From Eubacteriales bacterium (GTDB lineage Bacteria > Bacillota > Clostridia > Oscillospirales > CAG-272), in contig JAZSBJ010000039.1 of the NCBI GenBank assembly GCA_045602305.1, positions 1 to 42,237 of the forward strand: a stretch of DNA of 42,237 nucleotides. The letters are read 5' to 3'. The stretch's first letter is position 1, and the number at the start of each line of letters is the position of its first letter. Under the pieces are notes generated by a model. That model was not told where the DNA came from and did not search any database. It was given only the letters and a program-made list of their open reading frames with translations. Below are positions 33,405 to 40,053 of this stretch, piece by piece. Position numbers and translations under genes: made by a program.

Positions 33405-34472
33405 TCAGACCTCGACTCTCCAGCCGAAGGGATCGGGGCGGCGGCCCCACTGGATGCCCGTGATCTCGTCGTAGAGCTTTTGGGTAAGCTCGCCGATCTC
33501 ACCGCCGCCGATCTGCATCACGTCGTCCATATAACGGAGCTTGCCGACAGGGGAAACGACAGCGGCAGTACCCGTACCGAAGACTTCCTCAAGGGAGCCG
33601 TCCTTTGCGGCGGCGACCAGCTCGTCGACCGAAATGCGGCGTTCCTCGACCTCATACCCCCAGCTGCGGCAAAGGGTGAGCACGGAGTTACGGGTAACGC
33701 CGGGGAGAATGCTGCCGTTGAGCATCGGCGTGACGATCTTGCCTGCGATCTTGAAGAAGATGTTCATAGCGCCAACCTCTTCAATATATTTTCTCTCTAC
33801 GCCGTCCAGCCACAGAACCTGCGAATAGCCGTCGTCGTGTGCCTTGACCTGCGCGATGAGAGATGCGGCGTAGTTACCGCCCGTCTTGGCGAAGCCCATA
33901 CCGCCTTTGACGGCACGGACGTACTCGTCCTCGATCCAAATACCGACGGGAGCAAGTCCACTCTCATAGTATGCGCCCGAGGGAGAAAGAATGACCATAA
34001 AGAGATAGGTCTTAGAGGGTGCCACGCCCAGAAAATCGTCCGTCGCGATCACAAAGGGACGAATGTAGAGCGAGGTGCCGGGCTCGGTGGGGATCCAATC
34101 CTTATCCACCTCGACCACAGCGCGGACAGCTTCTACGAAATCCTCTTCGGGAATGTTGGGGATGCAAAGACGGTCGTTGGACTGATTGGCGCGCTTTGCG
34201 TTCATATCGGGACGGAAAAGGTATGCCTTTCCGTCGTCGCCCATATATGCCTTAAGTCCCTCAAACATCTCCTGTCCGTAATGGAATACCATCGACGCGG
34301 GAGAAAGAGAAAGATTCTGATAGGGGACGATGCGTGCGTCGTGCCAGCCCTTTCCTTCCGTATAGTTCATCACGAACATATGGTCGGTAAAGATATGACC
34401 GAAGCCAAGCTTTTCGCCCTTTGCGGGCTTCGCCTTGGGCGCAGTCGTTTTTTCGATCTTGATGTTCAGCAT
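33405..34472 (-). CDS. ilvE: Branched-chain amino acid aminotransferase
   Basis: 355 aa from the ATG at 34472: MLNIKIEKT...GFGHIFTDHMF...YGQEMFEGLKAY...AKTGGNY...LPGVTR, typical class IV aminotransferase IlvE blocks. The track ORF's extra 44 N-terminal residues lack a ribosome-binding site. Confidence 0.9.
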   Translation of the reverse strand: MLNIKIEKTTAPKAKPAKGEKLGFGHIFTDHMFVMNYTEGKGWHDARIVPYQNLSLSPASMVFHYGQEMFEGLKAYMGDDGKAYLFRPDMNAKRANQSNDRLCIPNIPEEDFVEAVRAVVEVDKDWIPTEPGTSLYIRPFVIATDDFLGVAPSKTYLFMVILSPSGAYYESGLAPVGIWIEDEYVRAVKGGMGFAKTGGNYAASLIAQVKAHDDGYSQVLWLDGVERKYIEEVGAMNIFFKIAGKIVTPMLNGSILPGVTRNSVLTLCRSWGYEVEERRISVDELVAAAKDGSLEEVFGTGTAAVVSPVGKLRYMDDVMQIGGGEIGELTQKLYDEITGIQWGRRPDPFGWRVEV

Positions 34473-34497
34473 TTCTTTTTGCCTTCTTTCTATCGAA

Positions 34498-35037
34498 TTA
34501 TTCTTCGTAATTGTAGCCCGTTTCGATCGCCTTGAGGTTGATCTCAAGAAGATCGGCGTGCTTTGCCGATACGACCTTGGAAAGCGCATCGCGGATGCCT
34601 TCATAGGACACCATACCCGTTTCGCGGATGAGCTTGCCCACCATAATCATATTGGCGAGCGTGGGGAAGCCTGCCTCCTTGGCAAGGCGGGTCGCGGGAA
34701 TGTAGAACGCATCCACATCCGCTCTCTTTACCTTGCGCTCAATGAGGGTGGAATCCACAAAGATCTTGCCGCCCGCGACGGTTGCGTCCTCGTACTTGTC
34801 GAGCGAGGGCAGGTTCATTACCATCAAAACGTCGGGGTTGGACACGATGGGAGAGCCGACGGGCTCGTCACTGATGATGACCGAGCAGTTTGCCGTACCG
34901 CCGCGCATTTCGGGACCGTAAGAGGGGAGCCAGCTTAACTGCTTGCCCTCAAGGAGCCCCTTATATGCGAGAAACTTGCCTGCGAACAGAACGCCCTGTC
35001 CGCCAAAGCCTGCAATCAAAAGGTTGGTCGTTTTCAT
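34498..35037 (-). CDS. 2-oxoacid:ferredoxin oxidoreductase, gamma subunit
   Basis: 179 aa. [14 protein letters not shown]...[14 protein letters not shown] is the conserved gamma-subunit signature. Its start overlaps the beta subunit stop (ATGA). Confidence 0.9.
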
Positions 35038-37740: not shown

Positions 37741-37752
37741 TTTCTTTGCTAA

Positions 37753-40053
37753 TTACAGCTTGTTGCGAATAATTTTTCCACTCGTCGTTTTGGGAAGCTC
37801 CTCGCGGAACACGACGATACGGGGATATTTGTAAGGAGCCGTCTTTTGCTTGACGTAGTCCTGGATCTCCTTTTTGAGGTCATCCGAGGGCTCGGTGCCC
37901 TTCGTCAAGACGATGGACGCCTTGACCACCTGACCTCTTACGGGATCGGGGGCGGCGGAAACACCGCACTCAAGCACGTAGGGAAGCTCCATAATGACGT
38001 TCTCGATCTCGAAGGGACCGATGCGGTAGCCCGAGGACTTGATGACGTCATCCACTCTGCCGACGTACCAATAGAAGCCGTCCTCATCGCGCCACGCGGT
38101 ATCGCCCGTGTGGTAAAGACCGTCGTGCCAAGCCTCGCGCGTTTTCTCCTCGTCGAGGTAGTAGCCTGCGAAAAGACCGCAAGGCGCGCCGTTTTCGGTA
38201 TGTACCACGATCTCACCCGTTTCACCGATGCCCACGCTCTTGCCGTCGGGGTCAACGATATCCACGTCGTAAAGGGGCACGGGCTTCCCCATCGAGCCGA
38301 GCTTGTGCGCGTCACCCACAAGGTTACCGATCATCAGAGTGCCCTCGGACTGACCGAAGCCTTCCATAATCTTAACGCCCATCAAGCGCTCGAGCTGACG
38401 GAACACCTCGGGGTTGAGTGCCTCGCCCGCCGTGGTTGCACGCTCGACCGAGGTCATATCGTACTTGCTGATATCCTCTTTGATCATCATACGGTACATC
38501 GTGGGGGGCGCGCAGAAGGTGGTGATGTGATATTTTGCGAACAGGGGGAGAATGTCTGCCGCCGAGAAGCGGTCAAAGTCGTAAACGAAGGTGGCACCCT
38601 CTGCCATCCACTGACCGTAGAGCTTGCCCCACATTGCCTTTGCCCAGCCCGTGTCCGAGATGGTAAAGTGGAGTCCTTCGGGGTTGACTCCGTGCCAATA
38701 TTTGGCGGTGAGGAAGTGACCGAGCGCATACTTGTAGTTGTGTGCGGCGATCTTGGGATAGCCCGTCGTGCCCGAGGTGAAGAACATCAGCATCAGATCG
38801 CTACCTGCGGGCGTTTCCTCGGTGCGGTCGAAATGGGTGCTGTAGAGCTTATATTCCTCGTCGAAACTGCGCCAGCCCTCTCGCGTGCCGCCGACCATAA
38901 TGCGGTTGACGACGTTCGGGCATTCGGCAAGTGCCGCCTCGGCTTCCAGCACAGTTTCCTCGTCCGAGGTGCAAAGGAGCGCGGATACGCCCGCCGCCCC
39001 GAAGCGATAGGAGAAGTCGTGCGACTTTAACTGATTGGTTGCGGGAATCGCGATGGCGCCGAGCTTGTTAAGACCGAGCATCGCAAACCAGAACTGATAG
39101 TGACGCTTGAGAACCAGCATCACGCGGTCGCCCTTCTTGATGCCGAGCGACTTAAAGTAGTTGGCACACTGCGCCGACGCACGCTTCATATCGAGGAAGG
39201 TGAAGCGGCGCTCGTTCTTTTCCTTGTCAAGATAGAGCATCGCGAGTTTTTCGGGCTTGGTCTTTGCCAGCTCATCCACGATGTCGTATGCAAAGTTAAA
39301 GGTTTCGGGGTTCTTGAAGGAGATCTTCTTAAGAACACCGTTTTCGTCCTCGACGGCGTCCACCCACTTGTCGTAAACGCGCTCCGTGGGCTCGGATACC
39401 ACCTTACGGCGCGGCTTATCCACAACGGATGCCTTTGCCGTTTCAAGCTCGGGAATGGGTTCACCCGAGGGGTTGAGGACCATTGCGTAGAAGGTACAGT
39501 CTTTTCCGCCCACAGCCTTCATACCGTGGGGGGTGGAGCTGTCGTAATAGATGCTGTCGCCCTCGTGAAGGGTGACCTTGTAGTCGCCCACCTGCACGCA
39601 AAGCGATCCCGAAATGACGATGTCGCACTCCTGACCGTCGTGCGTGGTAAGCTCGATCTCAGCGTCCTCGGCGCCCTTCGTATACGCGGCTCTGACGAAC
39701 AGAGGCTCGGCAATACGGTTACGGAAGGCAGAGGCAAGGTTAAAATACACCATACCGTGTGCCTGCTCGATGCGCTGTCCTTCCCCGTTTCTCGTTACGG
39801 TGTAGGCGGCGAGGCGAGGGCTCGTACCCTCGATAATATCCGTCACGTCCACGTTGAACGCCTGCGCGCAGCGGTAGATAAACGCGAAATTTAAATCGCT
39901 CTCTCCCTTTTCGCACGCAAGGTATTCCTGCTCGCTGACGCCCGTCTTTTTCGCCATCTCGCGGACGGTCAGCTGCTCGATTTCGCGAAGCTCGCGAATA
40001 CGCGCCGCCATTTCCTTGATCTTGGCGTCAAGACTCTTGTTTTGATTTTCCAT
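37753..40053 (-). CDS. Fusion protein: XRE-type HTH, cupin domain and AMP-forming acyl-CoA synthetase (ANL superfamily, medium/short-chain type)
   Basis: - 766 aa.
- aa ~15-70 (nt ~39843-40011): IRELREIEQLTVREMAKKTGVSEQEYLACEKGESD, an HTH_3 motif.
- aa ~95-195 (nt ~39468-39770): beta-rich cupin-like region (...DIVISGSLCVQVGDYKVTLHEGDSIYYDSSTPHGM).
- Ligase motifs: FFTSGTTGYPK, YGQSE-type GFGQSEG, YHTGD, SSGYRIGPFEIE and the terminal TTSGKI. Confidence 0.88.
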   Translation of the reverse strand: MENQNKSLDAKIKEMAARIRELREIEQLTVREMAKKTGVSEQEYLACEKGESDLNFAFIYRCAQAFNVDVTDIIEGTSPRLAAYTVTRNGEGQRIEQAHGMVYFNLASAFRNRIAEPLFVRAAYTKGAEDAEIELTTHDGQECDIVISGSLCVQVGDYKVTLHEGDSIYYDSSTPHGMKAVGGKDCTFYAMVLNPSGEPIPELETAKASVVDKPRRKVVSEPTERVYDKWVDAVEDENGVLKKISFKNPETFNFAYDIVDELAKTKPEKLAMLYLDKEKNERRFTFLDMKRASAQCANYFKSLGIKKGDRVMLVLKRHYQFWFAMLGLNKLGAIAIPATNQLKSHDFSYRFGAAGVSALLCTSDEETVLEAEAALAECPNVVNRIMVGGTREGWRSFDEEYKLYSTHFDRTEETPAGSDLMLMFFTSGTTGYPKIAAHNYKYALGHFLTAKYWHGVNPEGLHFTISDTGWAKAMWGKLYGQWMAEGATFVYDFDRFSAADILPLFAKYHITTFCAPPTMYRMMIKEDISKYDMTSVERATTAGEALNPEVFRQLERLMGVKIMEGFGQSEGTLMIGNLVGDAHKLGSMGKPVPLYDVDIVDPDGKSVGIGETGEIVVHTENGAPCGLFAGYYLDEEKTREAWHDGLYHTGDTAWRDEDGFYWYVGRVDDVIKSSGYRIGPFEIENVIMELPYVLECGVSAAPDPVRGQVVKASIVLTKGTEPSDDLKKEIQDYVKQKTAPYKYPRIVVFREELPKTTSGKIIRNKL

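Follow-up and report, generated by a model that had tools for sequence, protein, structure and literature searches.

A compact minus-strand operon in a stretch of DNA from a Eubacteriales bacterium (assembly GCA_045602305.1, contig JAZSBJ010000039.1, positions 1-42,237; the whole stretch of 42,237 nucleotides (nt) is called the window here) probably salvages isobutyrate to valine by reductive carboxylation, under a control that is induced by valine starvation. The operon (33405-40413) is one compact transcription unit of seven genes with intergenic gaps of 25 nt or less, encoding an AMP-forming acyl-coenzyme A (CoA) ligase fused to an N-terminal helix-turn-helix (HTH) and cupin module, a P-loop ATPase, the delta, alpha, beta and gamma subunits of a 2-oxoacid:ferredoxin oxidoreductase (OFOR) and the branched-chain aminotransferase (BCAT) IlvE.

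T-boxes switch genes on by letting transcription proceed while the cognate tRNA carries no amino acid. In the mechanism proposed here, uncharged tRNA-Val would pair with the T-box leader at two places, the GUA specifier and the UGGU bulge; this pairing would stabilise the antiterminator, and transcription would then enter the seven genes. The ligase domain would use ATP to convert isobutyrate to isobutyryl-CoA; the four-subunit oxidoreductase, of the thiamine pyrophosphate (TPP) and iron-sulfur (FeS) type, would convert isobutyryl-CoA to 2-oxoisovalerate with reduced ferredoxin and CO2; and IlvE would transaminate 2-oxoisovalerate to valine. A paralogous, Ile-type ligase encoded just upstream would activate 2-methylbutyrate, with the shared oxidoreductase and IlvE leading to isoleucine, and the P-loop ATPase may serve the oxidoreductase as a dedicated accessory. 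The original prediction for this DNA, made from the letters alone, had described a three-step module under starvation control that takes a branched acid to a branched-chain amino acid. The module itself gained support from the valine specifier, the ligase homologs and the VorB and BCAT cut-offs described below; its substrate was narrowed, since the GUA codon would make the unit in the window specific for valine and isobutyrate. The features of the region, in the order of transcription and with lengths in amino acids (aa), were as follows.

40463-42237, minus strand: upstream paralogous HTH-cupin-ligase gene, Ile-type, N-terminus cut off by the window end
40413-40385, minus strand: sigma-70-type promoter; -35 TTGACA, 17-nt spacer, TG-extended -10 TATACT; 11/12 matches
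40075-40369, minus strand: valine-specifier T-box leader; RF00230 match at 40115-40369, plus terminator and U-rich tract
37753-40053, minus strand: ligase gene, 766 aa; 12 nt to the ATPase gene
37084-37740, minus strand: P-loop ATPase gene, 218 aa; 16 nt to delta
36861-37067, minus strand: OFOR delta, 2x[4Fe-4S] ferredoxin-like, 68 aa; 12 nt to alpha; Pfam Fer4 and NCBIfam PorD_KorD-type matches
35793-36848, minus strand: OFOR alpha, POR_N plus PFOR_II, 351 aa; 3 nt to beta; VorB subfamily NF005507
35034-35789, minus strand: OFOR beta, TPP-binding, 251 aa; 4-nt overlap with gamma; Pfam TPP_enzyme_C
34498-35037, minus strand: OFOR gamma, 179 aa; 25 nt to ilvE; Pfam POR and NCBIfam PorC_KorC-type matches
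33405-34472, minus strand: ilvE, 355 aa; start at Met45 of the longest open reading frame (ORF); NF009897
33364-33391, minus strand: hairpin 14 nt past the ilvE stop; perfect 12-bp stem, -18.7 kcal/mol, z-score -5.9

Gene coordinates and domain matches confirmed the single minus-strand string, its short gaps and its gene order as originally described, and the same was true of its last five genes, with four OFOR subunits recognised by Pfam and IlvE above its equivalog cut-off. The longest ilvE ORF opens at 34604 and overlaps gamma; the publicly annotated gene product of 355 aa starts at 34472. Long plus-strand ORFs overlapping the operon were spurious. The -35 TTGACA and the -10 of the promoter line up across related leaders. 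At the other end of the operon, a hairpin had been placed at 33365-33390: its stem is present (see the coordinates above), but on the operon strand it is followed only by AUUUCCUCUU, a tail poor in U, and the clean T-run lies on the opposite strand, so that this hairpin is possibly a weak or bidirectional terminator.

The leader matched the full length of the T-box model RF00230 (model positions 1-219, E 1.8e-20), and its specifier, bulge and terminator could all be located, in agreement with the earlier claim that a T-box precedes the string. The closing helix of Stem I is formed by GAAG (40352-40355) and CUUC (40274-40277), and the specifier, GUA for valine (40279-40281), is followed by the purine G40278 and abuts this helix. 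The T-box sequence is AAUUUGAGUGGUACCGCGGGA, with the UGGU bulge at 40151-40154, and the terminator hairpin (40091-40128; 14 bp, -21.5 kcal/mol, z-score -5.1) is trailed by the U-rich tract CUUUGUUUAUUCCUUUU at 40075-40090. With these features, the leader is predicted to be induced by uncharged tRNA-Val.

Related loci were found by a scan with an alignment of the ATPase, taking one genome per species, and the best 80 of at least 599 loci were retrieved. The conservation counts given here rest on these best-scoring 80 loci and describe that clade rather than every carrier of the ATPase family. All 80 loci were from metagenome-assembled genomes of Oscillospirales-type Clostridia, many of them from rumen, caecum or faeces. 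In nine of the related loci, all 14 T-boxes found by motif were confirmed by Rfam (E 1e-11 to 1e-22).

The specifier was assigned from the window sequence and by comparison with about 130 leaders at the homologous site. The parsing was heuristic, accepting a frame only where the 3' strand of the helix could pair with its 5' strand, and left a few leaders unparsed or misparsed; this helix-pairing rule replaced a first regular-expression parser that misread leaders with "AUC C CUUC" as CAU or UAU. Three classes of leader were seen. The 61 leaders of ATPase-vor operons carried GUA (37), GUC (5), GUG (1) or AUC (13), the remaining five being misparsed or unparsed; the leaders of the upstream paralog carried AUC in 35 of the 38 parsed; and the leaders ahead of a LeuA-like gene in relatives carried CUC or CUG in every case (27/27, read by eye). 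The position of GUA thus appears to be correctly called, because its variation is synonymous or swaps among branched-chain amino acids only. The triplet CUU (Leu), just 5' of GUA, was considered as the specifier and rejected, as this position varies in homologous leaders (UUU, CCU, CCA and others).

Gene content around the ATPase was highly conserved. The ATPase gene was followed by delta-alpha-beta-gamma in all 57 related loci with enough sequence, and an HTH-cupin ligase stood immediately upstream of it in 67 of 71; ilvE lay within the cluster in 35 of 49 loci, either after gamma or between ligase and ATPase. Tandem ligase paralogs, two per locus and each with its own T-box, were present in 39 of 62 loci, while loci with a single ligase had an Ile-type ligase behind an Ile T-box. 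The truncated upstream ligase of the window was closer to the Ile clade (mean identity of 70%, vs. 66% to the Val clade) and had the Ile-clade residues at both diagnostic sites within its covered part. The relative L081, with 83% nucleotide identity across window positions 31041-42237, displayed the complete order: AUC T-box, 754-aa ligase, GUA T-box, 766-aa ligase, ATPase, delta-alpha-beta-gamma, ilvE, metY and metA. The valine unit of the window takes the downstream place in such a tandem Ile/Val system. No terminator was found between the stop of the upstream ligase and the Val promoter (window 40414-40462, about 50 nt to the -35), so transcripts from the upstream (Ile) unit probably continue into the Val T-box leader.

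In 27 related loci, a Leu-specifier T-box operon adjoins the Ile and Val units (2453-7313 in the relative L019; 1-4677 in L081), in a region that would lie beyond the window end. The products of this operon in L019 are a LeuA-like protein of about 470 aa with HMGL-like and LeuA_dimer domains, a protein of about 830 aa in which a xylose-isomerase-like TIM barrel is fused to an AMP-forming ligase, and a third protein, of the Amidohydro_2 type; the operon of L081 additionally encodes an APH-family kinase.

The ligase of the window is a 766-aa fusion of an XRE-type HTH (residues ~17-77), a Cupin_2 domain (~132-190) and an AMP-forming medium-chain acyl-CoA synthetase (~245-766; Pfam AMP-binding, E 3e-61, and AMP-binding_C, E 1e-21). 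Two characterised homologs bear on its substrate. MacsMa of Methanosarcina acetivorans (PDB 3ETC), which prefers 2-methylbutyrate (PMC10455477), is 53% identical to the ligase domain across 516 residues (636 bits). The best NCBIfam match was MbcS (NF047394), which is selective for 2-methylbutyrate and isobutyrate and activates isovalerate poorly (PMC10026030). This weak activity on isovalerate fits the observation that only Val and Ile leaders, and never Leu leaders, head ligases of this type.

Average-linkage clustering of 97 full-length ligases separated two clades that followed the specifiers strictly: one held all 48 ligases behind an Ile specifier, and the other all 43 behind a Val specifier, the complete ligase of the window falling in the latter. 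Trp259 of MacsMa, critical for acyl binding, is conserved as W475 in the window ligase. Of 11 clade-diagnostic positions, one was in the catalytic core (residue 471) and one in the linker (residue 225). Residue 471, four before the pocket Trp, distinguishes the Val type (Ala) from the Ile type and MacsMa (both Gly); an extra methyl group on the protein, offsetting one fewer carbon on the substrate, is suggestive of a specificity change but not proof of it. Because the Val-type ligase pairs with a valine T-box and has homologs acting on alpha-branched acids, its predicted substrate is isobutyrate, rather than branched acids generally, and its predicted product isobutyryl-CoA.

All four canonical OFOR subunits are present and adjacent. 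The alpha subunit scored 537 bits against the VorB model NF005507 (cut-off 399) and missed the Kor model (234 vs. 579) and the Por models, and near-identical alpha proteins carry the NCBI name VorB. IlvE passed two BCAT equivalog cut-offs (NF009897, 507 vs. 307 bits; TIGR01123, 422 vs. 250 bits). The titles of two studies cited in PMC7238569 (Heider 1996, Tersteegen 1997) indicate that the 2-oxoisovalerate:ferredoxin oxidoreductase (VOR) is reversible and that the VORs of methanogens are anabolic. We infer that the oxidoreductase of the window is of the 2-oxoisovalerate/isobutyryl-CoA type and works in the reductive direction.

Several observations weigh against valine synthesis from isobutyrate as the function of this operon. 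The 93.0-bit score of the T-box is exactly the Rfam gathering score (93), and a default gathering run of the window omitted it. Despite this borderline score, the T-box at 40115-40369 is complete by every structural criterion; several plainly homologous leaders of relatives also scored only 65-92 bits against RF00230, so annotation that relies on the threshold will miss part of this T-box group. The ligase scored 439 bits against the MbcS equivalog cut-off of 850 and did not reach it; by this score it belongs to the same wider family without being an ortholog of MbcS. The beta, gamma and delta subunits matched only generic OFOR/Kor/Por NCBIfam models, all below the cut-offs, and the closest solved structures of alpha were the 2-keto acid:ferredoxin oxidoreductase of P. 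furiosus and 2-oxoglutarate enzymes; the substrate assigned to the OFOR therefore rests on the NCBIfam label of alpha and on genomic context. The cluster lacked ilvE in 14 of the 49 complete loci. In tandem loci, moreover, the oxidoreductase and ilvE stand only behind the Val T-box, which leaves induction by isoleucine limitation alone unexplained.

Salvage was favoured over catabolism because the control is starvation-induced and amino-acid-specific and the ligase is AMP-forming. In the oxidative, fermentative direction, IlvE would deaminate valine, the OFOR would yield isobutyryl-CoA and reduced ferredoxin, and the ligase would run in reverse for energy. The identical enzyme set serves both directions and OFORs are reversible, the VOR of Thermococcales being catabolic to judge from a title cited in PMC7238569 (Heider 1996); a Val T-box, however, would then induce the degradation of valine when it is scarce, which is self-defeating. 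An AMP-forming ANL ligase stands at the acid step, with no Ptb/Buk and no ADP-forming synthetase, and specifier-matched ligase paralogs suit a choice of input acid, not of output. The original prediction had also held that this direction fits less well, a judgement with which the starvation logic of the T-box and the AMP-forming ligase agree, and we consider it the least probable of the explanations weighed here. An OFOR of general, 2-oxoglutarate or pyruvate type (serving, for example, the supply of 2-oxoglutarate/glutamate as amino donor), next to a ligase acting on unrelated acids and with no dedicated three-step pathway, is hardly more plausible. It would accord with the 2-oxoglutarate enzymes among the nearest solved alpha structures, with the 2-oxoglutarate oxidoreductase (OGOR) delta model as the best NCBIfam match of delta and with the generic matches of beta and gamma, but not with an alpha subunit that passes VorB and fails Kor and Por, with characterised ligase homologs that prefer branched acids, or with the way each ligase clade keeps strictly to its own specifier, Val or Ile, a match that links the cluster to particular branched-chain amino acids.

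The ligases could also chiefly supply isobutyryl-CoA and 2-methylbutyryl-CoA as primers for the branched-chain fatty acids of the membrane, amino acids being a secondary product or none at all. MbcS, the best NCBIfam match, feeds FabH with exactly these two acyl-CoAs (PMC10026030), and in many Firmicutes branched-chain amino acids are the source of the lipid primers, so that a shortage of these amino acids could trigger the salvage of acids. Primer supply would nevertheless leave unexplained why the oxidoreductase (57/57) and IlvE (35/49) are co-transcribed under the same T-box, and the MbcS equivalog cut-off was missed; since the acyl-CoA could have both fates, primer supply would be an added role more than an alternative. 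As the main function it seems unlikely, though less so than the two possibilities above, and the starvation-controlled route from isobutyrate to valine was retained.

The ATPase that precedes the oxidoreductase genes belongs to a large and uncharacterised family (at least 8000 matches, all with E ≤ 0.001; the few source names were "hypothetical protein"), and no database record was found with the exact sequence of the window protein. It has the Walker A motif GHYGSGKT, an invariant DLDIVNPYFRTKDS motif and the Walker B motif VLDVGGD. The AlphaFold2 model (predicted local distance difference test score, pLDDT, of 85.9) showed the fold of a SIMIBI-class P-loop NTPase, and Foldseek matched it to ATPase-type HypB and to the signal recognition particle GTPases Ffh and FtsY (probability 1.0, TM-scores of 0.5-0.64); a sequence search of the PDB gave weak P-loop matches only. 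Its earlier description as "MinD-like" is valid at the level of the fold class, but not further: the deviant Walker A KGGxGK[ST] is absent, with an invariant His in place of the signature lysine, and the Pfam scores for ParA (23.7 vs. 27.1) and CbiA (20.9 vs. 25.4) were below threshold. A role as FeS carrier or NifH-like electron donor was considered and rejected, as no cysteine is conserved in the family alignment. Because the ATPase gene invariably precedes the oxidoreductase genes, our guess is that the protein is an accessory or maturation factor of the VOR.

The HTH and cupin module fused to the ligase (residues 17-190) had been absent from the original prediction, as had the truncated ligase paralog upstream. 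It was matched by the Pfam families HTH_19 (38.3 vs. 30.2), Cupin_2 (46.2 vs. 27.2) and HTH_3. Three residues of the cupin part are invariant, His138, Glu142 and His176 (ligase residues 1-235 correspond to window 39349-40053), and are reminiscent of a 2-His-1-carboxylate metal site. Most of the clade-diagnostic residues (nine of 11) fall within the first 120 residues (HTH and linker), outside the catalytic domain, and this N-terminal concentration implies that the module diverged along with amino acid specificity. Foldseek matched the module to the XRE/cupin regulator 1Y9Q and to the enzymes HppE and HEPD, with TM-scores of about 0.3, which are low because the confidence of the model is moderate (pLDDT 67.5); a sequence search of the PDB with the module gave weak XRE matches only. 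Inspection by eye of an alignment of 94 promoter regions revealed no conserved operator palindrome, and an AT-only palindrome, TTTTATAT-N6-ATATAAAA (40428-40449), was rejected as an operator for the HTH because it is not conserved in relatives. A function of the module as a BirA-like enzyme-regulator or as a sensor of the 2-oxo-acid product is possible but unsupported.

A wider and more doubtful proposal would join these parts into a modular regulon leading from isoacids to amino acids. The HTH-cupin module, with a possible 2-His-1-Glu site of a kind able to bind 2-oxo acids, would make the ligases BirA-like enzyme-regulators or product-sensing feedback devices; the ATPase would be an obligate partner of anabolic VORs, in assembly or in ATP-assisted delivery of low-potential electrons; and with the pairs of T-box and ligase for Val, Ile and Leu they would make up a regulon of Oscillospirales that had not been described before. 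We offer this as speculation that may well turn out to be wrong.

On the same strand beyond the hairpin that follows ilvE are metY (31990-33276) and metA (31027-31953), two biosynthetic genes which adjoin the operon in the window and in several relatives, a setting that agrees with the anabolic reading. A covariance-model scan found no S-adenosylmethionine (SAM) riboswitch or T-box ahead of metY at E-values up to 0.01, and there were no tRNA genes in the window. Next to metA, a block of about 20.5 kb (window 10460-31026) is missing from L081 and L082, two close relatives in which sbcC and sbcD directly follow metA. The block has six minus-strand ORFs of 357, 1818, 663, 1263, 1276 and 1005 aa, of which those at 19897-23688 and 23769-27599 begin with a Tubulin_2 domain and the other four had no Pfam match; a PADLOC scan of its giant ORFs gave no match, and the block may be a mobile or conflict island. 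The plus strand encodes DNA polymerase I, with 5'-3' exonuclease and DNA_pol_A domains, and a pair of nucleases resembling SbcD/SbcC, at 2081-4633 and 6462-10459, and an S10-Clostridia ribosomal protein leader (RF03136, 796-868, minus strand, 44.2 bits) is upstream of the minus-strand ORF 333-641, probably rpsJ.

It has been known for about sixty years that rumen and gut anaerobes need or use isoacids for the synthesis of valine, isoleucine and leucine, which is why dairy cattle receive isoacids in their feed. Classical labelling in rumen bacteria showed branched-chain amino acids being made from isobutyrate, 2-methylbutyrate and isovalerate. In rumen methanogens, 2-methylbutyrate is converted to isoleucine and isovalerate to leucine (PMC10658910). 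The chemistry, the physiology and each of the protein superfamilies involved are thus already known. A literature search returned no description of this cluster, nor of bacterial genes for isoacid use or their regulation; in particular, we could not find the T-box-controlled assembly of ligase, ATPase, VOR and IlvE, the specifier-matched ligases, the neighbouring Leu-leader operon, the HTH-cupin fusion or the VOR-linked ATPase. The operon provides concrete candidate genes, widespread in Oscillospirales, which make the genetic basis of isoacid use by rumen and gut Clostridia testable. The T-box specifier serves as a built-in label of the amino acid served by each ligase paralog, two conserved parts, the HTH-cupin fusion and the VOR-linked ATPase, lend themselves to direct experiment, and the gene set would allow metagenomes to be annotated for the capacity to salvage isoacids.

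Each component can be compared with a known system. MacsMa shares with the window ligase 53% identity and the pocket Trp, but lacks the additional N-terminal HTH-cupin module of about 240 residues and has Gly where the Val type has Ala. MbcS of Staphylococcus aureus resembles the ligase in being its best NCBIfam match and in an alpha-branched selectivity that agrees with the Val/Ile pairing; it differs in feeding lipid synthesis, in having no HTH-cupin fusion and in not forming an operon with an oxidoreductase and IlvE. The VORs of Thermococcales and Methanothermobacter belong to the same multi-subunit TPP and FeS class as the enzyme of the window, which differs from them in being bacterial and controlled by a T-box, in its delta-alpha-beta-gamma order and in the P-loop ATPase gene directly upstream. 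XRE/cupin regulators (1Y9Q) and the enzymes HppE and HEPD share the two-domain architecture of the N-terminal 200 residues of the ligase, and the helical domain of HppE and HEPD does not bind DNA despite the shared fold; the module described here differs in being joined to a ligase of the adenylate-forming kind.

At the level of the pathway, classical reductive carboxylation shares with the predicted route the CoA activation, the ferredoxin-dependent carboxylation and the transamination, and the relatives are also largely from rumen and hindgut. The classical work described the physiology without genes or regulation, whereas an operon, amino-acid-specific T-boxes and paralogous ligases are described here from sequence. 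The ilv-leu operon of Bacillus subtilis places de novo synthesis of branched-chain amino acids under the control of a T-box, with one Leu leader. As is predicted for the operon of the window, its T-box senses uncharged tRNA and induces the synthesis of branched-chain amino acids; the operon described here, in contrast, would act by salvage of a fatty acid and not by the acetolactate pathway, and its relatives have separate Val, Ile and Leu leaders.

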